NCBI GenBank assembly: GCA_033723415.1
Contig: JAWVXD010000003.1
Location: forward strand, 160,001-224,000
Direction: 5' to 3'
Source of the DNA: Sulfurospirillaceae bacterium
GTDB taxonomy: Bacteria; Campylobacterota; Campylobacteria; Campylobacterales; Sulfurospirillaceae
DNA length: 64,000 nucleotides
Below the pieces are notes generated by a model. That model was not told the DNA's origin. It made no database searches and saw only the letters and a list, made by a program, of their open reading frames with translations. Below are positions 31,959 through 57,567 of this stretch, in pieces; position 1 is the first letter of the stretch; every line of letters starts with the position of its first letter. Made by a program: the position numbers and the translations under genes.

Positions 31959-32035
31959 GTCAAGGTAGCTCAGCTGGTTAGAGCGCTGGTCTCATAAGCC
32001 GGAGGTCGGGAGTTCAAGTCTCCCTCTTGACACCA
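31959..32035 (+). tRNA. tRNA with CAT anticodon (elongator Met; lysidine-Ile2 not excluded)
   Basis: GTCAAGG/TCTTGAC acceptor stem, D arm, CTCATAA anticodon loop, GTTCAA T loop, encoded CCA. Confidence 0.95.
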
Positions 32036-32065: not shown

Positions 32066-33331
32066 CTAACTAAAATCAACTTTTTTAAAAGTGTCACCTA
32101 AAGTGTCACCAAAAAGATTAATTTTCCTATCTGCATTGATCGCTTTATTTTCAACATATTTGGCATAATGTTTGATTAACATTTGTAGGTCACTATGCCC
32201 CAGAATGTTGGCGATTTCCTGCATTGTAAAGGCTTTTGACTCAATCGCACTCACTGCAAAGGTATGGCGACAATTTTTGAGATCCCGATACTCGATACCT
32301 AGATCAGAAAGTAGCTTATACCATTTTGTATTGTTTTTTATAGCTTTTCCATTTTTGACGATGAGCCTATCTCCTCTAATATCTTTGATGTCGGCGAGAT
32401 GCGAGCCGTCTAAATTCGAAAACAACCAAAGAGATTTTTTCGAGTAAGCTTGTCTTACAAGTTCTTCAAAATATGGTAGAGTAGCATCAAAAATTGGAAT
32501 TACTCTGTCTCGGTATTTTGTTTTTGTTTCCTTGACTTTACCCTTTGTTATGTTGCGTTGGATACTAATAGTTTGGTTTACAAAATCAATGTCTCTAAGT
32601 TGCAAAGCTAAAATCTCCGCTGGACTCATTCCCTGATTGATGGCAATCCCTAAATAGTAATGAAGTAAATCTCCATATTTTTGTTGGTCTCGGCTTGCAG
32701 ATAAAAGCCGTAAAACTTCATTTTTTTCAAAGGGCTTGATAGCATCGGTATTTCTATCTTTTTTTGCATCAAGTTTTATTTCATATGTGAAGTTTTTTAC
32801 TACTCCATCATCTGCGGCGACTTCAAAAATCCCGTGTAAAATTCTCAAATATTTTAGCTTAGAATTTTTACTGAGATCTGCACCTGTTTGTGAATGAGTT
32901 AGGCTGTTGAGCCAAAGTTTAATATCAAGTTTTGTAATCTTTTTGATATTAACATGTCCAAATTGTAATAAGATACGATTAGCACGATATTCAGCATTCT
33001 GATAATCGTAGTTTTGCTTATAATTGCTAAGAAAAATAGAACAGTAGTATCCAAAATTCTCACTTTTTTTGGCACTAAGTTGCATTTCTTCTTTTTTCCT
33101 TGCGAGCCAAACTGGTAGATATTTTTGCTCCATAAACTTTTGAGTTTTTTCGGTTTTTAGGACTTTTGTACTTTCTTCGATAGTTTTCGATTCTTGATTT
33201 TTAAAGAACACAGTATAACGTATATACCAGAATTTTCGATTTGAGCGATTTAAAATAATCGCCTGCATATCTTCCACATTTATCTCCTTTTGTGAATTTA
33301 AAGGAGATTTAGCAGATACAATTAACGACAT
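32066..33331 (-). CDS. Tyrosine recombinase/integrase (true start probably 33277 or 33268)
   Basis: GMSPAEILAL box I, KETKT, KNCRHTFA, LGH, HY motifs; AAGGAG RBS before GTG 33277. Confidence 0.93.
   Translation of the reverse strand: MSLIVSAKSPLNSQKEINVEDMQAIILNRSNRKFWYIRYTVFFKNQESKTIEESTKVLKTEKTQKFMEQKYLPVWLARKKEEMQLSAKKSENFGYYCSIFLSNYKQNYDYQNAEYRANRILLQFGHVNIKKITKLDIKLWLNSLTHSQTGADLSKNSKLKYLRILHGIFEVAADDGVVKNFTYEIKLDAKKDRNTDAIKPFEKNEVLRLLSASRDQQKYGDLLHYYLGIAINQGMSPAEILALQLRDIDFVNQTISIQRNITKGKVKETKTKYRDRVIPIFDATLPYFEELVRQAYSKKSLWLFSNLDGSHLADIKDIRGDRLIVKNGKAIKNNTKWYKLLSDLGIEYRDLKNCRHTFAVSAIESKAFTMQEIANILGHSDLQMLIKHYAKYVENKAINADRKINLFGDTLGDTFKKVDFS
32087..32109 (+). repeat. Tandem AAAGTGTCAC, candidate integrase arm site (left)
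   Basis: AAAAGTGTCACCTAAAGTGTCAC identical to 57412-57434. Confidence 0.75.
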
Positions 33332-33585: not shown

Positions 33586-34866
33586 CTAGATTATTGGTAT
33601 ATCAATATTGTTATAAGACTTATCCGAATAACTAAACGACCTATCCGACAAGTATTCTCTTTCCTCAATACCCCTAAATTTGGACTTATCCGAAGAAAAA
33701 GGACTTATCTGACCTATCCGAGAGTTATTTTTATAGACTATTTCGACTTTAGGTTCTTTAATAAGTTCGTAAACATCTCTATTGTTTTTTTCTGGGATTT
33801 TTGTGGCTCTCCAGAGCTTGTCTTTACCAGTTTGGACAACTGTATTATTTTTATCTTTATTTACATACCCTTGGTCGATAAGATGCTTAATTATCTGGCT
33901 GTAAGTTGGTTTTTCGTTTTGATTTTTTAGAAAATCAATAATCTCGGCTTTGATTTCTTCGTGTTCTTCCGTTTCTTTTGCCCAGCTGAGATCTACTTTG
34001 TTGATGGTGTGGGTATCTTGATTGTATGTAAATGCAATTTCTGTCAGCTCGCCGACTCTTTTTTTGATAGGAGTGAAAATAAAAGTTCTCCTAAAATCAT
34101 TTTTTTTAAGTATAAATGCATTTGAAGTATCCTCTTCCCAAGCACTAGAACCTGCGTATGTAAGTTCCGCCAAATCTTTCTGAGGTTTGTTGGTGTGATG
34201 CAGAAATAGTACAGTTGCACCTTGCCGCCGTAGGCTTTTTAACATATTCATGGTCTCTGATACGTCACGATTTTTGTCTCGATCACCTTTAACAAAGTTT
34301 TTTATAGAGTCAAAGACGATAAAGGTGTTAGATAGATCTGTTTCGTAGAGAGTTGATACAATCGAAAGCATTTCTGATTTTTTAGCATTAGACTCGTGGA
34401 AGTATCTAAACTTTTTTCCAAATTTTATTTTTACCGAGTCAATTTCTCTTTCTTTAATCGTTGTTATGCCGTTGTCGCCGTCGAAATAAACTATTCTCTT
34501 CCCGTTTTTTGCAACATAATTTGCAATGCCTATCGCTGTCAAGCTTTTGCCCGATTCTGGTTTTGCGGCAATCATCGTAATTTCATTTTCGACGATCATA
34601 TTTGGGTATAAATAATCAAATTTTGCATTTTTGACTTTAACTGGATCAAGATCAAATTTATCAAGAAATTTTTCTATTTCATCGAAAGATTTTTTTTCTT
34701 TTATGTCGAGATTTTGTTTTAATTTTTCAATTTCGATGTCTATTGCTTCTAGCTCCTCGAAATTTATATATCCGCTAATTTTCAATTTTTCGAGTTGATT
34801 TATTTGTTGCTTTATTGCCTCTTTTTGTTGTACCTTTTTTTCGATTTCGATTATTATTTTATTCAT
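33586..34866 (-). CDS. RecA-like/SF4 (AAA_25-type) helicase-like ATPase
   Basis: Walker A AKPESGKS, YFDGD, FIVFDS, LHHTNK, AGSSAW motifs. Confidence 0.8.
   Translation of the reverse strand: MNKIIIEIEKKVQQKEAIKQQINQLEKLKISGYINFEELEAIDIEIEKLKQNLDIKEKKSFDEIEKFLDKFDLDPVKVKNAKFDYLYPNMIVENEITMIAAKPESGKSLTAIGIANYVAKNGKRIVYFDGDNGITTIKEREIDSVKIKFGKKFRYFHESNAKKSEMLSIVSTLYETDLSNTFIVFDSIKNFVKGDRDKNRDVSETMNMLKSLRRQGATVLFLHHTNKPQKDLAELTYAGSSAWEEDTSNAFILKKNDFRRTFIFTPIKKRVGELTEIAFTYNQDTHTINKVDLSWAKETEEHEEIKAEIIDFLKNQNEKPTYSQIIKHLIDQGYVNKDKNNTVVQTGKDKLWRATKIPEKNNRDVYELIKEPKVEIVYKNNSRIGQISPFSSDKSKFRGIEEREYLSDRSFSYSDKSYNNIDIPII
33618..33732 (-). repeat. ~114-bp iteron-containing segment, copy 1 (inside helicase 3' end)
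   Basis: Reverse complement matches 57238-57351 with few mismatches; about five GGATAAGT-like units. Confidence 0.85.
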
Positions 34867-35616: not shown

Positions 35617-35704
35617 TATTTTGATGAATTTTTCACTATTTTTATATTTTATATTTTTTTGGTATCATTCTGTGTATATTTTAAACAAATTCAAAAGGAA
35701 CGTT

Positions 35705-36373
35705 ATGAACTCAGCTGAATTAATATTTGAATACATTAAAAAAAAATATAATTTTTCAAAAGATAAAGAAGTTGCGGATAAAATAGGAGTCAATTATAAT
35801 ACTCTCAAAAACTGGGTAGTAAGGGATTCCCCCAACTACCAGGTCATAATTGATTTTGCAAAAACAGAGAAAATTGATTTAAACGAATTATTTAACTCTA
35901 GTCTTGCAGCTCCTTCTTTAGAAAATTCACCCTCGATGATTGCTCTTCAAGAGGCTAATGCCGTGGCGGCAAATGAAAATGAAGTTGCTGATTATCTTAA
36001 AAAATTTACACTCAATAAGTTGCTGCAAAAAATCTTCAATAAAAAAGATGGTTTCTGGGGAAAGCTAACAGATATTATTTTTCCACTTACACAGAGACTT
36101 ATCGTTGTTACGTATAAAATCTTTAAGCACATTTCAAAAGATGAAAATACTGAGATTGATGATGCGAAAAGTTATTTAATTGATAAAATTCAAAATTTAA
36201 AGCTTTTAGAATTTGAACACATTGGAATTACACCATGGGATATTAAAAAACTTGTTTCAATAATTGAAAATATGAATGAGGATGAGTGTAGAATTTTAAT
36301 TGAGGACACAAATCGATCACTGGATCAAATAAGACAATATCTAGGTTTTATTGATCAAATAACAATGAAATAA
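35705..36373 (+). CDS. Phage CI-type HTH repressor-like protein
   Basis: N-terminal KDKEVADKIGVNYNTLKNWVVRDSP HTH; divergent from the replication operon; start at ATG 35705 after AAAGGA. Confidence 0.8.
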   Translation: MNSAELIFEYIKKKYNFSKDKEVADKIGVNYNTLKNWVVRDSPNYQVIIDFAKTEKIDLNELFNSSLAAPSLENSPSMIALQEANAVAANENEVADYLKKFTLNKLLQKIFNKKDGFWGKLTDIIFPLTQRLIVVTYKIFKHISKDENTEIDDAKSYLIDKIQNLKLLEFEHIGITPWDIKKLVSIIENMNEDECRILIEDTNRSLDQIRQYLGFIDQITMK

Positions 36374-36376
36374 GGG

Positions 36377-36547
36377 CTATTTTAGCCCTTTGCGTTTACA
36401 GTAGCGATAAAACCCATTATATGTAATTTGTACATTATTTGGCATCTTGTGACTTAGTATTTTCCAAATGCTTCTCAAGCTCGCACCAGTTTTTACAAAT
36501 TCCTCGATCTCTTGTCTGTACAGATCCAATATACTTACTTTACTCAT
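36377..36547 (-). CDS. 56-aa HTH-like protein (below ORF-track cutoff)
   Basis: GGAGG RBS; MSKVSILDLYRQEIEEFVKTGASLRSIWKILSHKMPNNVQITYNGFYRYCKRKGLK. Confidence 0.65.
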   Translation of the reverse strand: MSKVSILDLYRQEIEEFVKTGASLRSIWKILSHKMPNNVQITYNGFYRYCKRKGLK

Positions 36548-36754: not shown

Positions 36755-36948
36755 GAGCTTATATAAAGCTTTTCAAGGGCTCTTCTAATTTCATGTAAAT
36801 TGTGTAATTCCCAATCAACAAATCTTTTTTTATTGACCATCGAAACATCGTATTTTAGCCTTTCACATTCGTTTTCAAGCTCACTTATTTTCTTCAACAC
36901 CAGTTCGTAAATTTCTTGTGTAGCAGTTGGTAGGATTGGCTTTGTCAT
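36748..36948 (-). CDS. Small coiled-coil hypothetical protein
   Basis: GGAGG RBS before ATG 36948 (MTKPILPT...). Confidence 0.6.
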   Translation of the reverse strand: MTKPILPTATQEIYELVLKKISELENECERLKYDVSMVNKKRFVDWELHNLHEIRRALEKLYISSK

Positions 36949-37153: not shown

Positions 37154-37660
37154 TTACCAAGATATGATAAGATTTACCGAAGCGGTTAAGGTACCTGCAT
37201 CACAAGTATATTTTCCAGTACCGCTATCAAGGCTACAACCCGTTATAGGGTAAACATTAGGATATAGTGTTACCGTTTCGGTTGATCCAGTCGCCGTTCT
37301 GTTCCAAGGAGAGTTAGACATTACCAAATTTGTTTTTGATGCGTCTTGATAAAACTTCATCCCGTAGGTACTTCCAGTACCATTTGCCTGCATCGTATAT
37401 TGAGTTGCGTTTGTCGTTATAGAATATGATAATCCACTTGAGCAAGTCAGATCGAAAGTCAAAGGGTTCATCACTTCACCAGTGTTGCTCATAACCGTTG
37501 GAACAGTTCCAAGATCAAGTGTGGTACTCAAGTTTGCAATATTGCAACCTCCAGTATAAGTAATTGTTACTGGAACAGTTGTACTTGTAGAACCAGCAAA
37601 CGATACTGTTGTCAAACAAGCCATTAATATAGCTGTTAAAATACTTTTTTTCATCTGCAC
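37154..37660 (-). CDS. Spore coat U (SCPU/Csu-type) pilin subunit
   Basis: Signal peptide, GC...LDLG...C pattern, ends VNLIISW. Confidence 0.75.
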   Translation of the reverse strand: MQMKKSILTAILMACLTTVSFAGSTSTTVPVTITYTGGCNIANLSTTLDLGTVPTVMSNTGEVMNPLTFDLTCSSGLSYSITTNATQYTMQANGTGSTYGMKFYQDASKTNLVMSNSPWNRTATGSTETVTLYPNVYPITGCSLDSGTGKYTCDAGTLTASVNLIISW

Positions 37661-37664
37661 CTCC

Positions 37665-38138
37665 TTACCATGAAATTGTTACATTTAAAGTATCGCTGTA
37701 TGTTCCAGCTGGCGGCAATGGGTTATTATCTGCCATCGCAACTTTTGCATATACATTAATTGTATCGGTTGATCCAGTCGCCGTTCCAGTAATTGTATTT
37801 GCTGTCGTCGCTCCAAGCTCCGTGGTCATACCTGCATCACTGTAAAGTCTATAAGTAATATAATCTGTTCCACTGGCAGCTCTTCTTAATTCACCGTTTG
37901 GATTTCCTCCGCCATCAATTGTTGCTGTCCAATTTAGACCACTATTACAGATAATATCTACATTGAAGTTTGCAGTTGCATCGCTAACACCGCTAAAATC
38001 GAGTGTGAGAGCTGGACTGTTTGTAATGCTACAAGTTTGTTCGGCTGTACCGTTTACCGTTACAGTTCCACCAGTCGTTCCAGCTACTAAACTTATTGCT
38101 CCAAAGAAGAGCATCATAAGACATAAAACCTTTTTCAT
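37665..38138 (-). CDS. Spore coat U (CsuA/B-type) major pilin
   Basis: Signal peptide, two Cys, ITYRLYSD, PAGTYSDTLNVTISW. Confidence 0.85.
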   Translation of the reverse strand: MKKVLCLMMLFFGAISLVAGTTGGTVTVNGTAEQTCSITNSPALTLDFSGVSDATANFNVDIICNSGLNWTATIDGGGNPNGELRRAASGTDYITYRLYSDAGMTTELGATTANTITGTATGSTDTINVYAKVAMADNNPLPPAGTYSDTLNVTISW

Positions 38139-38159
38139 TGTTCCTCCTAAAGTCTAGAT

Positions 38160-38756
38160 TTATTTGCTTTCGCACCTATAAGCATAATTCCCGTGATTTG
38201 TTTCAATCGTTCCGCTTGCTCTTACATTGTCCACCTCCTTAATGTGGTTTGGTAAAACATACTCATTCATCTTCTTATCTGTGATAGATAAGATTTTATA
38301 GTGCATATTCCCACTATTTTTTATTTGAAGTGCATGACCTTTGCAGCTCAATTCAAGTTTTGGTTTTTGAAATTTCGGCAGGATAAAAACGGGAATAGAT
38401 AGAGTCTTTAATACTCTTGTTTGCCCTTCAAACTTATTGATATTCAGCTCTCTTAAGATAAGCCTATAAGATTTTTCTTGGGGTATTAAATTACTTCGTT
38501 TGTTATACACTTTTATCTTTTTTGGAGCTTGTAAGATTCTCGGATATACAACAACTTCATTAGTATTCTCCAACACTTCCTCTCCTTTTGTATCCTGAGT
38601 CCATTTTTTGATGTAAGCTTGATATTTACCGTTATCATCAGCTATGGTAAACTCTTTGTACTTCTTGCCGTATTGAATTTCTACTGGGATTGGATGCACC
38701 TGCAATGCAAAAGCTGCTATACTTGATAGTAGTGACACTAAAACTATTTTCTTCAT
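38160..38756 (-). CDS. Fimbrial periplasmic chaperone (CsuC-like)
   Basis: WTQ..GEEVL, VYP, EKSYRLILREL, LSIPVF, NSGNMH motifs. Confidence 0.85.
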   Translation of the reverse strand: MKKIVLVSLLSSIAAFALQVHPIPVEIQYGKKYKEFTIADDNGKYQAYIKKWTQDTKGEEVLENTNEVVVYPRILQAPKKIKVYNKRSNLIPQEKSYRLILRELNINKFEGQTRVLKTLSIPVFILPKFQKPKLELSCKGHALQIKNSGNMHYKILSITDKKMNEYVLPNHIKEVDNVRASGTIETNHGNYAYRCESK

Positions 38757-40711
38757 TTTCTTTTCTCCTGACAGTTGATTTGAACCTCATTGGGTTCTTT
38801 ACCCTTATTCATAAAATTAACTTTGCAACTTGTATTTGGTATTTGAGGGATAAAATCCTCATATTTTCCTATAAAACCATCGATCCAGAACTCACCGTCA
38901 AAGCCAGTAAAATATTCTTTATCTCCGACTTTAAAAGTTTTTTCATTGTATGGCTTGCCGTTTACTTTGATGGTTCCAGTAATCGTTTTATAAAGAGATG
39001 GATCTAACCAATAACCTTGGCCACTTTTTAGAGTTACTGGCGTGCTTGTAAATTTATTCTTCACATCGGTAGTCCAGTAAGACGGTATTCTCTTTAATTC
39101 CTTATCCTCTAACAAATAAGAGCTTGCTGGATAGATGACATCACCAAAGCCACAATTAATGCCCTCTGCAACTACGCAACCGATAGAACCGCTTATACCA
39201 AGATCCCAAGTTGTCTGATCGCTGATTTTTTGAGCATTAAACCAAAAGTTATTTTGATATTTTGCTTTTAATGATGCTTTGTATGTATCGCTCGTATAGC
39301 CTAAATCACTGGTTTGTTTTGAATAACTGGCTTCATATCCAAAACCTTTATGCTCATCCTCAATTGGCATCGATGTAGCTATGTATTTGCTTTGTCCATC
39401 ATCTTTGCTGGTGTTTGCATAGGTAAGAGTGGTTCTTCTACTCCCAATATCAAAATTCCAAACAAACCTTGCACCTATATTATAAGTATGATCTGTATTG
39501 TTAAAATTTGCATTGATTGAGAGATTGAGATTTTTCCAAAGCATTTTAGAGTAACTTACCCCAAAGAGAGTCTGAGCATTTGTGTGAAATTGAAGAGAGA
39601 TATTACCAAACCCTCCAGATACTCCAGCGTTGATCCTAAAATCACTTTTTTTGTCTTTTAGTATCTGCATTGCACCGATGTAATAGTTTTCAGATGAATA
39701 ACTGTAATCTATTGCTGCATTTTTTTTATTATCGATTTGTAATCCGAGTTTACCAAGAGTAGAGAGATAATCGGCCGTAAGTGCAGTTCTGTTAGTATCA
39801 AAAGCAAACCCAACCGTTAAATTGTCTGTAATTCCCTTTCTATAAAACCCACTGTATTGCATTTTTTGCTTTTCGTCTTTACCGATGGCAAAATCATAAT
39901 CGATGCTATCTTTTGCAAGTATATTTTGGTTGTAAAGAAAAGGAACGTCTATCTCTCTTGCATTCCCAAAACTATCAGTCACAACTATTTTTATGTTGTT
40001 TGAAAAATGGCTTATTGGTAAATCTCTTAAGTTGTAGATACCTGCATTTAAGGTAAGCTTTTGGATTATTTGATCATTGTTGTAGATTTCTACCGTTGAT
40101 TGATCATTGATCACTAACTGATAATCAAAAGTTTTTCCATTTTGAACCATCGCTTTATTTGGAGAGATTTGAACTCCCTCAAGAGCATATCCAGCAGTAA
40201 GATAGCTTCCAGATACAGCATAGACACTTCCAAGCTTGAGTTTTTTTTTCTCAAATTCTTTTAAGATGAAGTAGTTTTCGAGTTTATTTTCTTGCTTATC
40301 CGACAATGTTCCTTGAGTGTAGAATAAAGTATTATAAGCAAAAACTCCACTTCCCAGAGTTGCACTTACACCAGTATCTCTTTGTGCAATAGAGTAATTT
40401 AAAAAAGCGGATGTGCTATCTTTAAAGTATTTCTTTTTTTGTTGCCTAAAAGATAGTACTTCTTTTGATAAACATTTTCTTTTAGGCTTTAAAAATAGCT
40501 TTTCATCACTTTCTTGATACACTCCTAGATCTGATAAGTTTTTAGACGAGCATTTGCCAAAGGTAATATTATCATCAGCTATATACTTGCCGTTATCCTG
40601 AGTAAATAAAAAAGTACCTATTTGTTCAGTTCCAACAAATAGATCTAAAACTTTTGGCTCTGCAAAAAGAAAAATGGGTAAAAAGAGAAAAGCCTTAGTT
40701 AGATGCTTCAA
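38753..40711 (-). CDS. Outer-membrane fimbrial usher (CsuD-like, compact)
   Basis: SAFLNYS, plug STVEIYNND...GIYNLRDLP...IVVTDSFG, YRKGITDNLTVG, TGFDGEFW; likely TTG start at 40711 after GAGGGG. Confidence 0.85.
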   Translation of the reverse strand: MKHLTKAFLFLPIFLFAEPKVLDLFVGTEQIGTFLFTQDNGKYIADDNITFGKCSSKNLSDLGVYQESDEKLFLKPKRKCLSKEVLSFRQQKKKYFKDSTSAFLNYSIAQRDTGVSATLGSGVFAYNTLFYTQGTLSDKQENKLENYFILKEFEKKKLKLGSVYAVSGSYLTAGYALEGVQISPNKAMVQNGKTFDYQLVINDQSTVEIYNNDQIIQKLTLNAGIYNLRDLPISHFSNNIKIVVTDSFGNAREIDVPFLYNQNILAKDSIDYDFAIGKDEKQKMQYSGFYRKGITDNLTVGFAFDTNRTALTADYLSTLGKLGLQIDNKKNAAIDYSYSSENYYIGAMQILKDKKSDFRINAGVSGGFGNISLQFHTNAQTLFGVSYSKMLWKNLNLSINANFNNTDHTYNIGARFVWNFDIGSRRTTLTYANTSKDDGQSKYIATSMPIEDEHKGFGYEASYSKQTSDLGYTSDTYKASLKAKYQNNFWFNAQKISDQTTWDLGISGSIGCVVAEGINCGFGDVIYPASSYLLEDKELKRIPSYWTTDVKNKFTSTPVTLKSGQGYWLDPSLYKTITGTIKVNGKPYNEKTFKVGDKEYFTGFDGEFWIDGFIGKYEDFIPQIPNTSCKVNFMNKGKEPNEVQINCQEKRK

Positions 40712-40916
40712 ACATCGCCCCTCGATCATTAAAGAACCAATCAATATTTACGTTATATATTTGAATTAAATTTCTTAGAAATTGATATGTAATATTGTAA
40801 GTGTCATTTTCAATGTAAGACAGAGTTCTTTGCTTTATGCCGATTTTCTCTGCGAATTTTTCTTGAGATAATTTAAGAGTTTCTCGAATAAGTTTTACTT
40901 TTTCATGTGCTTGCAT
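40695..40916 (-). CDS. XRE-family HTH regulator heading the pilus operon
   Basis: LSQEKFAEKIGIKQRTLSYIEN; AAGGAG RBS. Confidence 0.88.
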   Translation of the reverse strand: MQAHEKVKLIRETLKLSQEKFAEKIGIKQRTLSYIENDTYNITYQFLRNLIQIYNVNIDWFFNDRGAMFEASN

Positions 40917-41143
40917 TGTTTCTCCTTTTTATAATTTAAAATGTTTTATATCTATATTCATAATCAAGCAGATGGGGTATTAAATTACTTCGTTTTACAA
41001 CACAAAAAAGATGGCTTAGAGGTATTAAATTACTTCGTTTCAGATTGAAAAAGCCGATTTTTGGTACAATATTAGAGCAGAAAAGAGTAGGGTATTAAAT
41101 TACTTCGTTTTTAGAGCAAACAATGTAAAATAGGGAGCTTGAA

Positions 41144-41449
41144 ATGATGACACTTATTAAAAATTATCTTTTACTCGTTTTGATAAAAGCTATCCTCAAC
41201 TATATACTACTTGCATTGATTGTGCTTGTCGTATTTGGCGGTTATGCACTTATCACAGATTGGGCTAGTATGATTAAATTTGCAACCGAGATAAGAAACA
41301 ATGAATTTGCTAAAATCATTCTTTGGTTGCCTTTGGTTTTGGCATTGTTTAACAAAGTTGAGGGAAATTTTAATAATGAAAATACAAAACGATATAAAGA
41401 AACCGAACACTTCTTTGAAATGTATGACACAATCGGAATGAAATGGTAA
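41144..41449 (+). CDS. Small membrane protein
   Basis: GGGAG RBS, two hydrophobic segments. Confidence 0.7.
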   Translation: MMTLIKNYLLLVLIKAILNYILLALIVLVVFGGYALITDWASMIKFATEIRNNEFAKIILWLPLVLALFNKVEGNFNNENTKRYKETEHFFEMYDTIGMKW

Positions 41450-41576
41450 AGGGCTATAATTGTGAAAGTAATATCCTCTTTGTTTAATATGGGGTAGGGT
41501 ATTAAATTACTTCGTTTTTCAATGTTGAAGCCTGATTTTGGTATAATGGATCGAAATAAAGAGAAGGGAGAGCCAA

Positions 41577-41729
41577 ATGCCGTTTTTATTACTGATGATC
41601 TCACTATTTCTTTTTGCATTGGTTCACAATTGGTATCATGCAGCGTTAGGTGTATTGATCGCGATTGTTGCTTCGTTGCTTGCAACATACTGGAAGCCTT
41701 TTAGAGACTCTCTTGAAGAGTATTTTTAA
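41577..41729 (+). CDS. 50-aa membrane peptide
   Basis: AAGGGAG RBS; MPFLLLMISLFLFALVHNWYHAALGVLIAIVASLLATYWKPFRDSLEEYF. Confidence 0.6.
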   Translation: MPFLLLMISLFLFALVHNWYHAALGVLIAIVASLLATYWKPFRDSLEEYF

Positions 41730-41743
41730 AATAGGAGTATTCT

Positions 41744-41878
41744 ATGATTTTTAATTTAGTTGCCGGAACTTTTACACTTGTTGCTGTCCTCTTAGCGATT
41801 GCAAAATATCGATATGAGAACGGAATCTCAAAATTTAGCCCTTGGCATCCAGACAAAAAAGAAGAGCCAACCCTATAA
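41744..41878 (+). CDS. 44-aa membrane peptide
   Basis: AGGAG RBS; MIFNLVAGTFTLVAVLLAIAKYRYENGISKFSPWHPDKKEEPTL. Confidence 0.6.
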   Translation: MIFNLVAGTFTLVAVLLAIAKYRYENGISKFSPWHPDKKEEPTL

Positions 41879-41910
41879 AAGGATTGGCGAAGTAATTTAA
41901 TACTGCTGTC

Positions 41911-42267
41911 TTAAAAGTTTTTCCACTTTTTATCGAAATCTTTATCAAACTCTTCAAAAGAACGATCAAAATTGTCCTTATAGACTTTCTCTCCCTTATT
42001 TACTTGTTTTTGAGCTATTATCTTTGTATCAGCTTTTGCAATTGTACTGTTTTTATCATTGTTGCTAGACATCTTTTTAGGCCTTGCTTTTGAGTTTACA
42101 TCTGCTTTATAAAAGCCATCAACTGCATTGTTGAAATCTTTTTGAGCACTTTGATAGCCTGTTTTAAAATCTTCTTTTGATTGTTGAAAAGAGATTTGAT
42201 TGTCACCGACTATAATTAATGTAACCACAAAAGCTGCTACTGCAAATAACCATTTCATTTTACACAC
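41911..42267 (-). CDS. Membrane-anchored/exported hypothetical protein
   Basis: N-terminal hydrophobic segment, charged C-terminus. Confidence 0.65.
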   Translation of the reverse strand: MCKMKWLFAVAAFVVTLIIVGDNQISFQQSKEDFKTGYQSAQKDFNNAVDGFYKADVNSKARPKKMSSNNDKNSTIAKADTKIIAQKQVNKGEKVYKDNFDRSFEEFDKDFDKKWKNF

Positions 42268-42270
42268 TCC

Positions 42271-42837
42271 CTAGAATAAATAGTGTAGTTTTACAAAAAC
42301 TGATTTTTCAGTTTTGCCTTGGATCTTATCGATTCCAACTCCGATTGTTAAAAATGGCACTATGCCAGTGTCATCACCTCCACCAAATTCCGTGTTATCT
42401 AATAACGCTTTGCCAGTCCAAACATTGAACTCCATAGAAGCACCATAGTTGTTGCTATCAGCAAGATACGCCTCTAGCTTTGTATTGCTAAACATAGGTA
42501 ATTTAGTTGTCACCGTGCCGTTTATCGTAGGTTTTGTGGCTGTTTGGGAATGTGTAATTGTTGGGATTTTAGAATACGTTACACCGACACCTAAGCCCCA
42601 ATAGAGAGCATTGTCTCTATGTGTTGAATAAAGAGCTCCTTGGTAGAGATCTTTATCAGCTATTTTTTTAAAGCTAAACATAGAAGATAAATTATCTTTA
42701 GTCTCCATTGCAAGACCAAACTCATAGCTGCTCTGCGAACCGACTGAGGCAAAAATATCTCTTGTGTAGTCTTTTGCCATTGCTCCAGTTGCTACAAGAC
42801 TTGCAACTGCTCCCGATAAAATCAACTTTTTGAACAT
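42271..42837 (-). CDS. Probable small outer-membrane beta-barrel protein
   Basis: Signal peptide ending AMA, alternating beta-strand pattern, C-terminal VKLHYLF; start at 42837 after AAGGAG. Confidence 0.6.
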   Translation of the reverse strand: MFKKLILSGAVASLVATGAMAKDYTRDIFASVGSQSSYEFGLAMETKDNLSSMFSFKKIADKDLYQGALYSTHRDNALYWGLGVGVTYSKIPTITHSQTATKPTINGTVTTKLPMFSNTKLEAYLADSNNYGASMEFNVWTGKALLDNTEFGGGDDTGIVPFLTIGVGIDKIQGKTEKSVFVKLHYLF

Positions 42838-43166
42838 TGTAAACTCCTTATATTTTGTTTTGTTCATCTATATTCATAATCGAAGAAAGTTTTAATGGTG
42901 TTGGGTTAGGGTATTAAATTACTTCGTTTTTCATATTATGGCAGTATTAAATTACTTCGTTTTGTGGGGAGCAAGCACATTTTTTGATGCGGATAACACT
43001 AAATATTAGAACAAAAAAGGCTAAATGATAGGGGAATTTATGTTTTTACGCAATTTTGAACACTTTTATCCCAATCGAGCAAGAGGGGTATTAAATTACT
43101 TCGTTTTTTGATTTTGCAAGTATTAAATTACTTCGTTTTGAATAGAGAGGGAGACTAAGCTCCCTA

Positions 43167-43904
43167 TTAAAATCTTCTAAATCCACTTTGTGTCGAATAC
43201 TCTTTTTCTTGGATTTGAGGATGTAATGTCTTTTTATTTTGATCAAAATTATTGTGCGTTAAGTACGACGAAATAAAAAGTTTAGCATCCTCATAATCTT
43301 TTCGATTGATTATCACCGCAAATGCTTCGATATTCCACCAAATATTTGCATCTACACCGCTATCCCATGCCATTTTGTATAAAACATTATATTTATATTG
43401 CTGGGCATTAAATTTATCTCTTGTGACTCCTCCTCGTGTCATTTCCATATTTTTTGCTGAAAAAGAGTATCCAAATATCGGTATGTCATTAACAGTGCAA
43501 AGTTTTGATATCTTCGTCCAACTTTTCATATTATCGTTCAGCTTGCCATAGATCATTGTATTGGCATCAAGGGAGTTTACCCCGATAGGAAACATTTTAT
43601 TTTGCCAAGTTGCTGGTTTATCTATTTTTCCTCCTTGAGAACTACAATACTCAGCAAATCGCCGATCGTAAAGTTTTTTAAAATTCTGAGTCCAATCTCC
43701 ATTTTTATCTAATTCTCTATTTTTTGTTGCGGTCAATTCATAGAGCTTTGTTTTGTTGTTCCAACTAAACCCTTGTCCCTCTATAAAATCTTTAACCGTT
43801 GTACTTTTTAGAGCTTCTGGAGACGGCATCGATGTAGTACCGCACCCAGAAAATAACATGATCATAGTTGATAGTAAGAATGTCGTTAAAATCGTCTTTT
43901 TCAT
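43167..43904 (-). CDS. Lipoprotein of unknown function
   Basis: Lipobox LFSGC. Confidence 0.8.
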   Translation of the reverse strand: MKKTILTTFLLSTMIMLFSGCGTTSMPSPEALKSTTVKDFIEGQGFSWNNKTKLYELTATKNRELDKNGDWTQNFKKLYDRRFAEYCSSQGGKIDKPATWQNKMFPIGVNSLDANTMIYGKLNDNMKSWTKISKLCTVNDIPIFGYSFSAKNMEMTRGGVTRDKFNAQQYKYNVLYKMAWDSGVDANIWWNIEAFAVIINRKDYEDAKLFISSYLTHNNFDQNKKTLHPQIQEKEYSTQSGFRRF

Positions 43905-43913
43905 GATGTTCTC

Positions 43914-44981
43914 CTAGTAATTTATCATTTCGGTATCGGTTGGCGTATTGGCAGCATTGGTCGTAAGATTGTGATACTTTTTGAGTAACGGTGTCAATGC
44001 TCTTAATATTTTGCCATAAGTTGCTTCCCACTCTTTTGCCTTAAAAATCAGAACTTTACCGTCTTTCGTTCTTGCCTTAAAAGGCATCATCATCTCTGCA
44101 TCACCGTCTATTTTTACGCTCAAGGACTCTACATATTTGACGTTATGAAAAACTGGATAATTCTTATACAAGATTTGTTTAATGATCGGTTTTGCTTGAT
44201 CCAAAAGCTCATCTGCTTTAATTTGTGCATCTCTTGGCAATAGATAAATTGAAGCAAAAGGCACGTTTTTAGTAAAGTCAGATACGAAAAAATATGGATC
44301 TTTCCACGCCCTTTCTTCTTCGATATAAAATGATGGAGACCAATCTGTATATTCCTTTATCTTTGCACCGGATAATTCAAAATACTTAGGAAATTCCTTT
44401 ATATTCAGCTTCCATTTTTCTTTAGCATTTTTGAGATATGGATCTGGAGAAAAGACATCAAAAACTGGCTTGAAAAATTTTGGCGTATAGATTTCAACGA
44501 AATTACCATTTCTCACATACCCGAAAAAATTATGATTATTTATTTTGCAAGATCTTCCCGTCCATCCAATAGTCGCTTTCAACTGAGCGGCTTTTTGAAC
44601 TTTGCCGTTTTCGAGATACTTTTTGATCATCTCTTTTTTTCTATCAATCAGATATCCACTTTTTGCTACACAATATCTCTCTAGCTCTCGTGAGATCGAA
44701 TTGAAAAAATCTCCTAATCTAGGGGTGATAAGGGGATTACACATCATCTTATTTTTTGGCGTAATATTGCCGCAACCGATAGGTATTTCCCGTGTTCTGT
44801 CTAATCGATAAGTGAGAGGCAAACTATCCATAAACTCTTCAAAGTTCATCGCCTTGTATTTTTGAAGATCGCCTTTTTGGATCTTCGGTACTTTAGGAAT
44901 AGCGGATGGCCGTTCTGGTAATGCACAACCACTAAACAATGCTCCTGCAATTGCTACTGTAATTAAAATATTCCCTTTCAT
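43914..44981 (-). CDS. Lipoprotein of unknown function
   Basis: Lipobox LFSGC. Confidence 0.8.
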   Translation of the reverse strand: MKGNILITVAIAGALFSGCALPERPSAIPKVPKIQKGDLQKYKAMNFEEFMDSLPLTYRLDRTREIPIGCGNITPKNKMMCNPLITPRLGDFFNSISRELERYCVAKSGYLIDRKKEMIKKYLENGKVQKAAQLKATIGWTGRSCKINNHNFFGYVRNGNFVEIYTPKFFKPVFDVFSPDPYLKNAKEKWKLNIKEFPKYFELSGAKIKEYTDWSPSFYIEEERAWKDPYFFVSDFTKNVPFASIYLLPRDAQIKADELLDQAKPIIKQILYKNYPVFHNVKYVESLSVKIDGDAEMMMPFKARTKDGKVLIFKAKEWEATYGKILRALTPLLKKYHNLTTNAANTPTDTEMINY

Positions 44982-45020
44982 TTCTTAACTCCTTATATGA
45001 TTTCATTGATATTCATAAAA

Positions 45021-46607
45021 TTACCTGACGATATTAAGCATAGATCCTAAAATACCTGTTGAAGTGGATGCTTTATCGATCAAGTCTTGTTTCATCAGAT
45101 AGTTTTTGTTTGCCGCTATTTTGCTGGCCAACTGCATAGCAAGTCTTGCCATGTCCTGCTTGTTTTCTCTTTGAAACTGATTGATAGCTCTTTTGACATT
45201 ATTTGCCCATTTTTTGCTTTTTGCCTCTCTCATCGCTCGATTAAAGTTCTCTTGTACGCTCTCGCTCGATTCGATATTAAAAGAGATCCTTTGATTGAGG
45301 ATGTATCCCTCACTTTTAGAAAAGATAATGTCGTTGTAGCTGGTATGAACCCTTGGAAAATTAATAATATCTTTGCCTTTCGGTCGCCAAAAATCACTAG
45401 GATCACTTATATATTTTTTTAAAAAGTCGTTTTTACCAGTAATTTTTCTATATAGATATTCTCTCACTCTGTATTGGATCTCTTCAAGAGAGTAGCTGTT
45501 GTTTTTACTCATATCGATGCTGCTAAAAGCCTCAAGATATAATTTCATGAGCTTCTTAAAGTAATCATCGAACTTTTTGTGCTGATTCTCTTTTGAGAGG
45601 TTAATGCCATCGGCATTTAATGATCTATCGATCACGATAATGTTTTTATTTGACATTTCACCGCCAAAAGCTCTCATGAAAATCAAATCTCCGTAAAAAT
45701 GCAATTCTCTTACTGGAGAAATCTCAACAATCGGTTGGGAATTTTTCATCAGTATAAATCTTCCCTCTTGTGGTTGAGTCTGTAAAATATAACGCTTGTT
45801 GAAAAACTTTAAATCATTATCAAAAAAGTTTTTCATCGTAAATACAAAGTTTCCACTCCATCCTCCAGAAACATCAACGATAAATTTACTTCGATAAAAA
45901 GATACCGCGAGATACGTTTGAGGTAGTTCATAGGTTCTGGCACTGACACTTACCTTTGGCAAACCGTAGATAGAAAAAAACTCATTAAACAATTTGTTAT
46001 ATTTGTAGAAAAACTTATCCATTAGAAGATTAGACATAGCCAATATTCTAGCTCTGGCACTCAAAAGCCCGTTTGCACCGCCATAAGCCAATCTCGCTCC
46101 CATCGCCCATTGATTTCCCATCTGTTGAGTCATCGTTTGATCCTGATAATACATATAGTTGCGATTTGCCATCATGGCCTCTTGCTCTGCAAAATTTTTA
46201 AAGCTATTTGGCAAATCAACTTTCCTAATTGGCAGCCAATCCATGAAAGTTCGTGGATCTTTTGTGTATTTATCGATAAACTTTTCTACGAGATAATCAA
46301 TCTCTGGCATCATCATTGTTGCCTGCATATCGATAACCCTTTTTATATTTCTTGATTTAGAGTTACTTTGAGATGTTTCGGAAGATAGTGTTTGCTCTTT
46401 TTCCTTGGATTTTGAAGTTTCAGATCCTTGATTTACCTCTTGCCCTTTTTCATGACTGATCGTTTTTGATGTTTCATTTGTGTGTGATCGATCAACACTC
46501 TTTTGTACCGATTGATCATTTGTTTTCGAGTAATGTTCATCTTGTCCGATTGAGTTTGCAAACAGTGCCGTTGCCAGCATGGTTGCCAATATTAGTATCT
46601 TATACAT
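45021..46607 (-). CDS. Secreted protein of unknown function with S/T/K/E-rich N-terminal region
   Basis: Signal peptide ending ALFA; GAGG RBS; last gene of the relaxase gene run. Confidence 0.8.
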   Translation of the reverse strand: MYKILILATMLATALFANSIGQDEHYSKTNDQSVQKSVDRSHTNETSKTISHEKGQEVNQGSETSKSKEKEQTLSSETSQSNSKSRNIKRVIDMQATMMMPEIDYLVEKFIDKYTKDPRTFMDWLPIRKVDLPNSFKNFAEQEAMMANRNYMYYQDQTMTQQMGNQWAMGARLAYGGANGLLSARARILAMSNLLMDKFFYKYNKLFNEFFSIYGLPKVSVSARTYELPQTYLAVSFYRSKFIVDVSGGWSGNFVFTMKNFFDNDLKFFNKRYILQTQPQEGRFILMKNSQPIVEISPVRELHFYGDLIFMRAFGGEMSNKNIIVIDRSLNADGINLSKENQHKKFDDYFKKLMKLYLEAFSSIDMSKNNSYSLEEIQYRVREYLYRKITGKNDFLKKYISDPSDFWRPKGKDIINFPRVHTSYNDIIFSKSEGYILNQRISFNIESSESVQENFNRAMREAKSKKWANNVKRAINQFQRENKQDMARLAMQLASKIAANKNYLMKQDLIDKASTSTGILGSMLNIVR

Positions 46608-46974: not shown

Positions 46975-47223
46975 TTACTCCTCTTCTATTTGAATTTCAT
47001 CAAAATACTTTTCAAGGTATTTCGCCGCAACTTCAAACGACTTCTCTTCAAACTCTTTTATCTCATGATTGGTTAATCCAATCGTTTGAAATAATGCACC
47101 TATGTTGTTCCTCAATGCTCTTGTTTGGACTACATCACGCAATACAAGATTTAAAATTAACTCTTGCTGCTTTTCAAGGTTCTCCAATTTTTCTAAAATT
47201 TGAGCCTTATCTTGTTCGTTCAT
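46975..47223 (-). CDS. Small hypothetical protein
   Basis: AAGGAG RBS before ATG 47223 (MNEQDKAQ), overlapping the relaxase stop region. Confidence 0.6.
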   Translation of the reverse strand: MNEQDKAQILEKLENLEKQQELILNLVLRDVVQTRALRNNIGALFQTIGLTNHEIKEFEEKSFEVAAKYLEKYFDEIQIEEE

Positions 47224-48985
47224 TTTTGATCTCCTTGTTTTTAGATTTTGGTTTCTGCTTATATTCATAATTCTTGTCAATTTTTCTCTCTTGCGCTTTT
47301 ATATCTCTGGCAAGTTTTCCAATACTTTGATTTTTTTGCATTTTAGAGATCATCTTGTGGTTTGAATGAATAGTCTTGAGATCCTTTTGGGTCTGATAGA
47401 TAGCTTTGCCAGTCTCTTTCATGGCTTTCCAAGCTATCTTTGTCGCAAATTTCAAAGTAAATTTTGTTGTGGCTAAAGCGACCGATAATCCAAAAGCCAA
47501 AAATCGCTCTTCGGCACTTCGAGGCTTAAATGACCAATATGTCTTTTTTATATCTTTGGAGAACTTATCTAGTGTTGCGAGTGGCTTAGTCAATGTAAAT
47601 GGAGAGTGTGTGCCTGTTTTTGTCCATTGATTGACCCATCTATCAACTTCTTTGCCATATCCCTTTATCGTTTTATTGAACTTGCTTGGGAGTAATTTCT
47701 CGGTTAATTTCTCGATATGTTTAGCAGCTTCTGGAGAGTCTTTATATTTTAAAAACACTTCTCTACTAACGGCAAGTTTATAAGTGCTGCCCTCTTTAGT
47801 AACCAAACCTTTTGATTTGAGTTGCTCCAGTCGTTGCACTTGCAACATCGTATTCTTGCTAATTGCTTCAAACGAAACATATTTTTGGGTGATAGCTTTT
47901 ATCATTGCCTTGTCTGGATCTAGCTCTCCAAGTGTTAATAGCGTACTATCTATAATGTCGATTTTTGTTTGTGTCTCAAGTTTCCTCAGCTCTTCGATCT
48001 TTTGGAAATTCATGTGTATTTGGAGGGTTCTATCTCGTCTGTCTAAGTCCAATCCACCTTTTACGCCTTTTAGATCTTTCAAGCTTTTGAAGTGCTTTTG
48101 ATTGTTTTTATAGAGATTACTTTGTTCTTGTTTGATCTCTTTGAGAGATTGATATAAGTGACTTTTTTCAACTTCTAATCCGCTACTTTTCTTAGCATTC
48201 TCAATGATACGGGCTTTTTCTTGAGAGTATTTTTCGAGGTCTATTTTGAAGTTTTGCCCATCGATACTTTTTGATATTCCAAGCTTTTCCAGCCCTCTCA
48301 ATCTTTGAGCTACTCTTGTTCTCCAGTAGTCTTTTTGTTTGTCGCTCATCTTGCTTTTATTGAGAGCCCATTCAAATCTTTTCCAACCAAAATGGCCGTT
48401 ATCTTTGTTGATATGCTTCCAAATAAAATTATCAGCTTTTTGGGTATTTGTATAGTTACCCCTCTCGTATTTTTTATTGATCGCATCCATCCTTTTTTGA
48501 TTGCGTTCAATAACTTGTGCTCGCTCTTTTGCATCTTTTGTATATTTGAGTTCTATTGCATCTAATTTGTTAATCCATCCTTTCCCTTTTCCGCTTCTAT
48601 TGAGAGCTTCTTTACTTCCAAAATATGCAATGTGTAGATGTTTGTTTGAACCATCTGGCATATGATGTATAGCATAAACTGCACCCAGCTTTTCTTTTGC
48701 TTGTACACTTCTTTCTTGGATAATATCTTTGGCCATTTGGTGCAACTCTTGGATAGTCAATTGGTCTGTTTGAGGATTGTAAATCTTTATCTCTTGGGCA
48801 TCAAATTTTTGTCCAATGGTATCGGCTGTTTTAAAGTCAATTTTATTGCCGTTGTAGTTGTATAAATTCCTAATTTGTTTATTATCAGTTGTATCAAGAT
48901 ATTTGTATCGCCCATTAACTTTGCCGTTTTCGAGATACTCCAATGAGGCTCTAAGATTACTCACTCTTTGAGTTTTTTCAATCAT
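47207..48985 (-). CDS. HUH relaxase (MOBP-like, divergent)
   Basis: N-terminal SLEY tyrosine, AVYAIHHMPDGSNKHLHIAY 3-His motif; preceded by an RHH gene and oriT-like region. Confidence 0.72.
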   Translation of the reverse strand: MIEKTQRVSNLRASLEYLENGKVNGRYKYLDTTDNKQIRNLYNYNGNKIDFKTADTIGQKFDAQEIKIYNPQTDQLTIQELHQMAKDIIQERSVQAKEKLGAVYAIHHMPDGSNKHLHIAYFGSKEALNRSGKGKGWINKLDAIELKYTKDAKERAQVIERNQKRMDAINKKYERGNYTNTQKADNFIWKHINKDNGHFGWKRFEWALNKSKMSDKQKDYWRTRVAQRLRGLEKLGISKSIDGQNFKIDLEKYSQEKARIIENAKKSSGLEVEKSHLYQSLKEIKQEQSNLYKNNQKHFKSLKDLKGVKGGLDLDRRDRTLQIHMNFQKIEELRKLETQTKIDIIDSTLLTLGELDPDKAMIKAITQKYVSFEAISKNTMLQVQRLEQLKSKGLVTKEGSTYKLAVSREVFLKYKDSPEAAKHIEKLTEKLLPSKFNKTIKGYGKEVDRWVNQWTKTGTHSPFTLTKPLATLDKFSKDIKKTYWSFKPRSAEERFLAFGLSVALATTKFTLKFATKIAWKAMKETGKAIYQTQKDLKTIHSNHKMISKMQKNQSIGKLARDIKAQERKIDKNYEYKQKPKSKNKEIKNERTR

Positions 48986-49391
48986 TTTTCACCTCTTTAT
49001 TTTCTTTACTACTTTCAACTTTAAAGCCTGCATCGGAATAGTGTTTTTGAGTAATTTCAACTGCTTTTCTCCAAGCTGCTTCCTCCGCTTTTGTTGCCTC
49101 ATCTTTATCTCTAACAACACTATGAAATGCTTTAACTTGATAACGAGTTGCTACGCTATAAAGTGTGTTTTTTGCAAGCAAAGAGTTGTATCTATTGAGT
49201 TCCTTTTCAATTCGTTTTTCTATATTTTCTAACCGTTTATCCATTACTGCTAAATGGTCTGTGATCATCCCATTGACATACTGCTGTAAAGCATCTCTTA
49301 CCACATCGCTTTTACTGATTTTGTTTATTCTCGCCAGCTCTTCAAGCGCAAAATGAATACCCTCGTCTATTTTTACATTAATGTGTGTCAT
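48978..49391 (-). CDS. Ribbon-helix-helix relaxosome accessory protein (MobC-like)
   Basis: HINVKIDEGIHFALEELARINKISKSDVVRDAL RHH pattern; overlaps relaxase start. Confidence 0.75.
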   Translation of the reverse strand: MTHINVKIDEGIHFALEELARINKISKSDVVRDALQQYVNGMITDHLAVMDKRLENIEKRIEKELNRYNSLLAKNTLYSVATRYQVKAFHSVVRDKDEATKAEEAAWRKAVEITQKHYSDAGFKVESSKENKEVKND

Positions 49392-49590: not shown

Positions 49591-49659
49591 GGAAAAGAGC
49601 CTCAACAATTTAATAAATTATGAATATAGATGAAACATAAATTTACACAAGGAGTAACA

Positions 49660-49953
49660 ATGTCAATTATAGATACCGTACTAAAAAAGTACGATACAAG
49701 CGGCTGTGAGAAAAAATCATCATTGAGCGTAAAAATAAACGCAAATCTTGCCAAAGATATTGATACAGTTTGCAATCATCTTGGTATTTCAAAAAGCCAA
49801 CTGGTAGCGGATATTATTGAAGTATCTGGCATATCAAAAAAAGCGGAAGAGATAGCGGTACTAAAGGAAGAAAAAGAGACTTCAAATAAAAGTCAAACTG
49901 GTAATTTTTCTCCCTTAAAAACCAATCAAGCGACAGATAGTAAAGGAGAGTAA
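49660..49953 (+). CDS. RHH/CopG-like DNA-binding protein
   Basis: SSLSVKINANLAKDIDTVCNHLGISKSQLVADI; AAGGAG RBS before ATG 49660. Confidence 0.65.
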   Translation: MSIIDTVLKKYDTSGCEKKSSLSVKINANLAKDIDTVCNHLGISKSQLVADIIEVSGISKKAEEIAVLKEEKETSNKSQTGNFSPLKTNQATDSKGE

Positions 49954-49955
49954 AA

Positions 49956-50405
49956 ATGGCATTAGGATTTTTACATGAAAATTGGCTTTTTCGTGCTTTT
50001 GAGAACATAGAAACAAATGTAAAAATGGAGACTAAAGGTTGGAGTCTATATGCAAGTATTATTGGATCGCCATTTATAGTTTCGTCGATAATCTATTTTA
50101 TCCATAAAATAATGGAAAGAAGAGCGATGCAGTTAGCACGAATTTCTCTTAGACATTTTAGCTGGATTGACATATCAATAATTCCTTACATTGGTATTGG
50201 GGTAGTCCTCACATTGTTGGTAGCTTTTTTGTTTGGAAAAAAATTTTTAGATTATGTCAAAGAAGAGAATAAAAAGCTCATCAGCGATGAGTATATAAGA
50301 GGTGCAAAATTAGTTTGCAATGATGATTTTAATGATCAGTTTACTGAATACGATGACTTTATAGAGATAAAAGTTGTTGATGAACAATGTACGAGACAGT
50401 TTTAA
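49956..50405 (+). CDS. Membrane protein resembling the N-terminal anchor of a coupling protein
   Basis: Two TM segments then YIRGAKLV, like the RG motif that precedes the TraD/TrwB cytosolic domain. Confidence 0.65.
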   Translation: MALGFLHENWLFRAFENIETNVKMETKGWSLYASIIGSPFIVSSIIYFIHKIMERRAMQLARISLRHFSWIDISIIPYIGIGVVLTLLVAFLFGKKFLDYVKEENKKLISDEYIRGAKLVCNDDFNDQFTEYDDFIEIKVVDEQCTRQF

Positions 50406-50418
50406 GAGGGAGTAAAAA

Positions 50419-54358: not shown

Positions 54359-54411
54359 GAATATTCCTTATTATTTTAAATATATTATATACCACCTGAA
54401 TCAAATTTTAA

Positions 54412-55086: not shown

Positions 55087-55161
55087 AGATATCCTATGTA
55101 CTTCGTTTTTTATAATTTTACAATAATTTTTTACTATAAAATAGAAAATGTCAAAATTGAA

Positions 55162-56421: not shown

Positions 56422-56534
56422 AATTAAACCTTATTCAACCTTATTTATGGTTATTATATCTAAAATATTATTAAACTTACCCTATATTTAAACTTGCTAT
56501 GATTACAAATCAATCAAATTTTAGGTAGGTTAAT

Positions 56535-57519: not shown

Positions 57520-57567
57520 TCTCATAAGCCGGAGGTCGGGAGTTCAAGTCTCCCTCTTGACACCACT
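57520..57567 (+). repeat. attR core (duplicated tRNA 3' half)
   Basis: Identical to 31990-32037; no tRNA 5' half upstream. Confidence 0.95.

Follow-up and report, generated by a model that had tools for sequence, protein, structure and literature searches.

To our knowledge, the way in which most mobilizable islands detect a helper plasmid is not known, the characterised cases relying on a transfer activator or a partition protein. SGI1, a chromosomal mobilizable element, carries parS mimics that are bound by the ParB protein of IncC plasmids (PMC10954446); it also has a rep gene of its own, iterons that differ from those of IncC, and AcaCD-activated promoters (PMC7433901). Islands of the PIME and MGIVflInd1 types are described as integrated, lacking a type IV secretion system (T4SS), helper-dependent and equipped with defence cargo (bioRxiv 10.64898/2026.01.12.698999; PMC5704250); mobilizable genomic islands read SetCD or AcaCD, and the report on PIMEs states their helper sensing to be unresolved and assigns their iterons to their own rep (bioRxiv 10.64898/2026.01.12.698999). 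The present analysis concerns a 25.6-kb element integrated at a tRNA-Met gene of a Sulfurospirillaceae bacterium (assembly GCA_033723415.1, contig JAWVXD010000003.1, positions 160,001 to 224,000, a stretch of 64,000 nucleotides hereafter called the window, whose coordinates are used throughout). The homologs identified agree with a Campylobacterota host. The element, which has exact 46-bp copies of the tRNA-Met 3' end at its two boundaries (31990, 57520), resembles SGI1 as a chromosomal mobilizable element with a putative binding site for a helper protein that would be read in trans. Unlike in SGI1, the copied site is a predicted replication iteron, no matching replication initiator (Rep) is encoded, and a type IV coupling protein (T4CP) and a likely relaxase are present.

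The iteron origins of F (RepE), R6K (pi) and Vibrio (RctB) represent the same class of site and the same initiator fold as those predicted here for the plasmids, whereas the element sites are dispersed and lack a 21-22-bp array, an AT-rich tract and a rep gene in cis. RctB-type initiators are reported to repress promoters and to be titrated by outlying sites (PMC6090056). The F-type elements CampyICE1, pCIG1485E and the C. upsaliensis plasmid constitute the candidate helper family; CampyICE1 is likewise located at tRNA-Met, and the words 'iteron', 'replication' and 'relaxase' do not occur in the main text of its report (PMC8743540). In contrast to this family, the window element is devoid of their T4SS. 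The putative iteron mimicry would be a variant of helper-site mimicry not reported before in the literature searched, in which subscription literature was little covered and no account was found of a bacterial island bearing the iterons of its helper without rep, nor of this element family. Geminivirus satellites dependent on the Rep of a helper offer a loose analogy.

The repeat and its counterparts on conjugative plasmids

The 16-mer core of the repeat has ten exact copies in the window, in agreement with the preliminary description. Nine are exact 19-mers on the plus strand (starting at 38483, 40977, 41022, 41092, 41499, 42911, 42944, 43088 and 43120) and one is an exact inverted 16-bp core on the minus strand (41888-41903), which lies between convergent gene ends, the same position as in the related loci L159 and L162. 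Eleven matches with three or fewer mismatches were obtained against a shuffle mean of 1.68, a number reached in 0 of 100 shuffles, and no further copy at 0 or 1 mismatch is present in the whole genome (2,426,994 bp). The repeat is also retained among 14 related metagenome loci collected by alignment of p528, an envelope-module protein of the element: CGAAGYAATTTRATAC occurs in 10 of them (27 sites versus 0.0009 expected, in loci that are not independent samples), with p528 of the site-bearing elements 41-80% identical to that of the window. Of the remaining four, one has a copy with two mismatches and the others have no copy; the region is not spanned by two of these three, and the third is divergent and also lacks the Box B motif described below. 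Pilus genes are absent from all four related loci that span the pilus position, although the repeat is kept. The repeat is a real, conserved feature and is not specific to the pilus.

Search of PLSDB using blastn with the repeat region of the window revealed one shared intergenic region in four Campylobacterota plasmids. The C. upsaliensis plasmid NZ_OU701460.1 has six exact 16-mers (four of them exact 19-mers), five at a 21-bp period, and pCIG1485E has an array of a one-base variant, spaced 21-22 bp, which immediately follows the genes for a 287-aa hypothetical protein and a DnaB-like helicase; the 60 nt before the arrays of these two Campylobacter plasmids are 82% AT. Arrays of two- to three-base variants follow homologs of the 287-aa protein on the Sulfurimonas plasmids of S. 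paralvinellae and S. aquatica and in the genome G422, the period being 21-22 bp in the S. paralvinellae plasmid and G422. When 400 genomes of the phylum were searched with the pattern, one contig (G370:C2) proved to have five copies, of which three are spaced 22 bp; the exact degenerate pattern is present in 4 of the 400 other genomes of the phylum. A contig of a sediment metagenome-assembled genome (MAG) has nine related copies, several spaced 21-22 bp.

The plasmid regions combine features expected of iterons, namely tandem repeats about two helical turns apart, an AT-rich tract before both Campylobacter arrays and a linked gene for a predicted winged-helix initiator. The rep gene is directly upstream of the array on most plasmids and 2.8 kb distant on the C. 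upsaliensis plasmid. Plasmids with ParAB and plasmids with ParM alike have the array behind rep, and the parM locus has a separate array of its own with a 43-bp period; therefore, the arrays are read as iterons and not as centromeres, which disfavours the centromere-like role once suggested for the repeat. F-type transfer genes are found on both Campylobacter plasmids, which are similar to CampyICE1 as described (PMC8743540), and the repeat is predicted from its sequence to be the iteron of a Campylobacterota family of F-type conjugative plasmids.

The array-linked protein has 285-290 aa and belongs to a family present on 11 PLSDB plasmids. Its model (pLDDT 89) has RctB domains 2-3 as the top fold match (E 2.8e-4), followed with weaker E-values by RepE and by pi bound to iteron DNA, and its ESM Atlas neighbours are Rep3, TrfA and RepA_C clusters; it is predicted from the model to fold like the RctB, RepE and pi initiators. 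The likely origin of this plasmid family, and its likely initiator, are thereby located; in the PLSDB records consulted, rep is listed as a hypothetical gene. Plasmid pHRV44 encodes a 59%-identical Rep, yet the corresponding positions carry an unrelated repeat of 22 bp, one copy of which is at the end of a homolog of the 50-aa gene of the element; the pHRV44 Rep differs in the helix at residues 226-236, which may be the recognition helix. Five more distant Rep homologs, on chromosomal or draft contigs, have no periodic array within about 10 kb.

No matching Rep was detected in the genome under study (profile search at E<=1, PF01051), a MAG from which an unbinned plasmid could be missing, nor was a Rep homolog found within the extent of the 14 related loci, and no protein encoded by the element resembles Rep. 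Any binding by Rep must therefore act in trans. The sites of the element family are dispersed and do not form an origin-type array; the window element has no 20-23-bp array and no cognate rep in cis, and the flanks of its sites are 63-77% AT, so they are not an origin of the plasmid type. The element carries the site of a helper without the corresponding protein, as in SGI1-type mimicry, binding here being a prediction from sequence. Since the matching Rep is absent from it, the element likely uses the repeats to sense a helper plasmid of this kind and may possibly hinder it as well.

Placement of the sites and a proposed model of helper sensing

The sites, named iteron mimics on the above prediction, and the genes adjoining them are as follows.

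36377..36547, minus strand: 56-aa HTH protein (HTH56), weak DUF5338 match; Box B 5' of the gene at 36575-36584
38483..38501, plus strand: iteron mimic within the chaperone gene (KRSNLIP)
40695..40916, minus strand: 73-aa XRE regulator (XRE73); Box B at 40954-40963
40977..40995, plus strand: iteron mimic, 29 bp upstream of the Box B of the XRE gene
41022..41040, plus strand: iteron mimic, 24 nt upstream of an extended -10 box (41062-41070)
41092..41110, plus strand: iteron mimic, 21 nt downstream of the -10 box at 41062-41070, a repressor-like position
41144..41449, plus strand: 101-aa membrane protein
41499..41517, plus strand: iteron mimic, 24 nt upstream of an extended -10 box (41539-41547)
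41577..41878, plus strand: 50-aa and 44-aa hydrophobic proteins with homologs on pCIG1485E
41911..46607, minus strand: envelope module (p118, omp198, lipoproteins of 245 and 355 aa, p528), no Pfam family
42911..42929, plus strand: iteron mimic, 47 bp upstream of the Box B of omp198 (42870-42879)
42944..43138, plus strand: three iteron mimics (42944, 43088, 43120) away from promoter motifs

Twenty-three of 37 sites are adjacent to a promoter or a ribosome-binding site (RBS) as against 3.1% of random positions, in classification windows chosen post hoc; this count omits the 41022 copy, found adjacent by separate inspection. The copies at 41022 and 41499 end 24 nt 5' of the extended -10 boxes TGGTACAAT and TGGTATAAT, respectively, and the 41092 copy begins 21 nt 3' of TGGTACAAT. 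Two copies lie upstream of minus-strand TTATGAATAT, at 29 and 47 bp start-to-start, and the 38483 copy encodes KRSNLIP within the 198-aa chaperone. The preliminary description was accurate on all these details, that is, on KRSNLIP, on the TGGTAYAAT boxes 24 nt from two copies and on the pair upstream of TTATGAATAT.

The last motif forms part of Box B, TTATGAATAT(AGAT), which precedes the RBS of most backbone genes by 20-30 nt, even within coding sequence (window positions 36575, 37092, 38178 as a variant, 40954, 42870, 45009, 47261, 49418, 49618 and 52431). Box B is conserved in the relatives and is not a canonical sigma70 -10 box; paired with a following RBS, it has seven occurrences in the element, a single one elsewhere in the genome, two in pCIG1485E and none in the C. 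upsaliensis plasmid. The distance from site to Box B (n=17) is 37 bp in nine cases and 46-47 bp in three, the others being 38, 40, 29, 24 and 24 bp. With respect to extended -10 boxes, the sites lie mostly 24-25 nt upstream (15 nt in two cases) or 19-22 nt downstream, and those in the downstream position are often directly 5' of the RBS of the 50-aa gene, including in Arcobacteraceae and Sulfurimonas islands. A single site separates a Box B promoter from a divergent sigma70 promoter in the loci L153, L162 and L163, and in L163 the whole unit of Box B, site and sigma70 promoter is duplicated nearly unchanged. In four loci the site covers the start of a lipoprotein gene (MRSNLIP) with synonymous variation only. 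Among 12 aligned chaperone homologs, an alignment that leaves out one partial match, RSNLI[PL] is found in four, one-residue variants in three and unrelated sequence in five.

As a separate observation, auxiliary iterons in L219 (840-1417) occur as repeated units abutting TTGACA...TATAAA promoter-like sequences, in the same orientation to the promoters as at the sigma70 promoters of the window.

The interpretation favoured here, to which a probability of roughly 0.55 is assigned, is that the Rep of an incoming helper would bind the iteron mimics and switch the promoters of the element, with extra copies possibly titrating Rep. It builds on the sequence identity, the origin-type arrays of the plasmids, the predicted fold of Rep, the lack of a Rep match in the genome and the fixed spacing between sites and promoter-like motifs, and all its steps beyond the sequence identity are ones that we infer. 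When the plasmid is absent, transcription from the sigma70 promoters would yield the small membrane proteins and the cargo. Binding of Rep at 37 or 47 bp 5' of Box B would activate the transfer and regulatory genes, whereas binding beside or just past the sigma70 -10 boxes would repress the divergent genes for cargo and small membrane proteins; those five window copies that are not near promoters might titrate or handcuff Rep to the disadvantage of the helper.

A broader and more tentative proposal, which we rate at somewhat below even odds, is that the replication initiator of the helper serves as a transcription factor for a family of mobilizable islands in Campylobacterota. Upon arrival of a plasmid of the right incompatibility type, mimics between divergent promoters would switch on the transfer genes and switch off genes for exclusion or defence, and surplus mimics would handicap the helper. 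If true, the replication initiator would join the known helper signals, and the sequence of the repeat would predict which plasmid can mobilize which island, allowing islands and helpers to be paired by sequence.

Several points weigh against helper sensing by Rep. Only five of the ten window copies adjoin promoter-like motifs, the windows that define adjacency are post hoc, and the related loci share the dependence mentioned above. A site is lacking at many Box B promoters. The TTTGATAC variant, common in the relatives, is absent from every plasmid array examined, and pHRV44 demonstrates that the iteron cannot be predicted from overall Rep identity. The Rep family is present in just 1 of 60 genomes of the same family, with a different iteron, and no cell was seen with both the element and a matching plasmid; as the genome is a MAG, an unbinned plasmid may have been missed.

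Alternative explanations

The most serious competitor, although an unlikely one, is that the sites serve incompatibility only, the dispersed iterons soaking up or handcuffing the Rep of the helper and expelling or excluding the plasmid with no important effect on promoters. The five window copies that are off promoter motifs are in line with this, as are pairs described as in-phase among the copies at 42911, 42944, 43088 and 43120 (33 and 32 bp apart). Auxiliary initiator sites are known to act by titration and handcuffing (PMC6090056), and SGI1 is reported to expel its helper through parS mimics (PMC10954446). However, titration requires no set distance to a promoter, yet nine of 17 Box B distances equal 37 bp and the sigma70 offsets are set at 24-25 and 19-22 nt; moreover, single sites before the RBS of the 50-aa gene persist in the Arcobacteraceae and Sulfurimonas islands, where one copy would titrate little.

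Somewhat less probable still is that the sites are operators of a regulator of the element itself (XRE73, HTH56, the CI-like repressor or the RHH protein), the likeness to plasmid origins reflecting common ancestry of a module of XRE and membrane-protein genes. Homologs of the XRE73, 101-aa, 50-aa and 44-aa genes are indeed carried by pCIG1485E, those of the XRE and 50-aa genes adjoining the origin. The 101-aa homolog on this plasmid, 54% identical, lies directly upstream of traG, which would be an exclusion-like position. Against such operators, plasmids carry the repeat behind rep, in the form of an origin-type array that changes together with Rep; the array of the C. upsaliensis plasmid is exact despite an XRE match of just 24% identity, and the element encodes no Rep-like protein. 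The earlier proposal of operators for one element protein therefore survives in part: promoter sites for a single protein fit the data, but the likely protein, the plasmid Rep, is not encoded by the element.

Replication of the excised element in trans by the helper Rep, with the sites as a satellite origin, is considered improbable. The exact iteron sequence and the in-phase pairs would suit such an origin, and reversed Box B resembles by eye the ATCTATA tracts beside the plasmid arrays. However, neither the element nor the 14 related loci have an array with a 20-23-bp period, the AT content of the flanks is below the 82% of the two plasmid origins, and the element has an AAA helicase-like module of its own. 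That the repeats are a non-functional relic of a plasmid origin region is very improbable: the three small genes and the XRE gene in common with pCIG1485E would be explained, but all ten copies are perfect, sites recur at backbone genes without a plasmid homolog and in the codons of two different genes, and the recurrence spans elements as divergent in p528 as noted above.

Shufflon-like recombination with pilus phase variation, to which the asymmetric 19-mers, the one inverted copy and the tyrosine integrase of the element had pointed, is not supported and is rated the least probable: the sites are nine direct and one inverted, gene order and orientation around them are conserved among the relatives, relatives keep the sites without the pilus, on plasmids the sequence forms a tandem array of origin type, and one unbranched 23.6-kb contig from a possible source run covers all copies at depth 77 with no joints, which is weak evidence against frequent shuffling because contigs drop rare variants. 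The R64 shufflon (sfx/Rci) likewise has asymmetric 19-bp repeats near pilus genes, but its swappable C-terminal segments and dedicated invertase have no counterpart in the window, where no rearrangement was seen.

Other candidates were also considered. A CRISPR array does not agree with the irregular spacers (32-2494 bp between copies). A regulon of the host was rejected because the genome has no sites outside the element. The Rfam scan matched the tRNA only, leaving the repeat without a known RNA family; a role in RNA pairing was not retained, the variation consisting of transitions only, which fit wobble pairing on either strand and are thus uninformative on it. Three chromosomal chaperone-usher loci, found with the usher, have no such repeat family.

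The mobilizable element and related islands

The remaining features of the element are listed below.

31990..32035, plus strand: attL, the 46 bp at the 3' side of tRNA-Met (tRNA 31959-32035)
32066..33331, minus strand: tyrosine integrase (PF00589, E 5e-13)
33586..34866, minus strand: AAA_25 helicase-like protein from domain search, probably the replication module of the element
35699..36373, plus strand: CI-like repressor (PF07022)
37154..40744, minus strand: Csu-type chaperone-usher pilus cluster (two pilins, chaperone, usher), cargo
47207..49391, minus strand: likely HUH relaxase (592 aa) and RHH MobC-like gene; Box B at 47261-47270 and 49418-49427
49630..51693, plus strand: 107-aa protein, 149-aa membrane protein and T4CP (TrwB_AAD_bind, E 1.5e-74); Box B at 49618-49627
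53126..57224, strand not assigned: cargo (DUF6161, nuclease, C5 methylase, Eco47II-type endonuclease)
57520..57565, plus strand: attR, exact 46-bp repeat of the tRNA-Met 3' part

The integrase is accompanied by att repeats and the T4CP by no full T4SS; the TraC_F_IV and CagE_TrbE_VirB families (TraC/VirB4) were not found in the genome, in searches whose positive controls matched. With an integrase, a T4CP, a likely relaxase and no TraC/VirB4, the element therefore looks like an integrative mobilizable element dependent on the T4SS of a helper. The 592-aa relaxase candidate has no Pfam or NCBIfam match, its ESM neighbours being relaxases at 0.87, a lead only; it has no match in other genomes among 60 relatives, nor on PLSDB plasmids. 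The conjugative plasmid pHRV44 (L218:23665-25662) has a homolog of the T4CP, 149-aa and 107-aa module (55%, 36% and 45% identity, respectively) with a Box B-like motif. The tRNA-Met gene (31959-32035) is the kind of site reported for CampyICE1, and on account of this shared site the element may compete with the candidate helper family for integration.

An AT-rich tract at 36613-36770, between an 82-aa gene and HTH56, has an 11-bp period (identity 0.54 at 11 and 0.51 at 33) and may act as a centromere-like site or an origin for the element. The p528 protein (45021-46607) has a likely signal peptide and a Ser-rich disordered N-terminus, the rest being modelled confidently with no credible fold match (best Z 5.5). 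Its profile has no match in other genomes among 400, and neither p528 nor the 50-aa protein has a match on PLSDB plasmids. Together with the two lipoproteins, omp198 and p118, p528 constitutes the conserved core of the family, which might remodel the mating apparatus of the helper.

Scanning of the genome collection with the pattern returned at least 118 stretches, mostly single and apparently chance matches; among the matches listed, five lie beside a homolog of the 50-aa gene and one is a tandem array (L090). The viral collection yielded 21 single matches, with no tandem pair, p528 relative or Rep relative. Arcobacteraceae/Sulfurimonas-type islands (L028, L043, L049, L051, L115 and L202-L205) have the 50-aa gene with a single iteron-like site before its RBS, several also carrying the 101-aa gene and lying beside AbiE-like or restriction genes. 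Another T4CP-bearing integrated element of the same genus (L249, G075) encodes CI, HTH56 and a MobF-like relaxase and has neither motif.

Cargo and mobilization genes vary among the related loci. In L163 (1471-7158) a 1895-aa TrwC/MobF relaxase (TrwC E 1e-72) replaces the HUH module, the envelope module and both motifs being kept. A hot spot of cargo on the opposite strand occurs between the 245-aa lipoprotein and omp198 in L156, L158, L159 and L161-L163, and consists in L158 of a caspase and ThsB-TIR. In several loci the cargo of this hot spot lies downstream of a sigma70 -10 box, on the far side of an iteron mimic.

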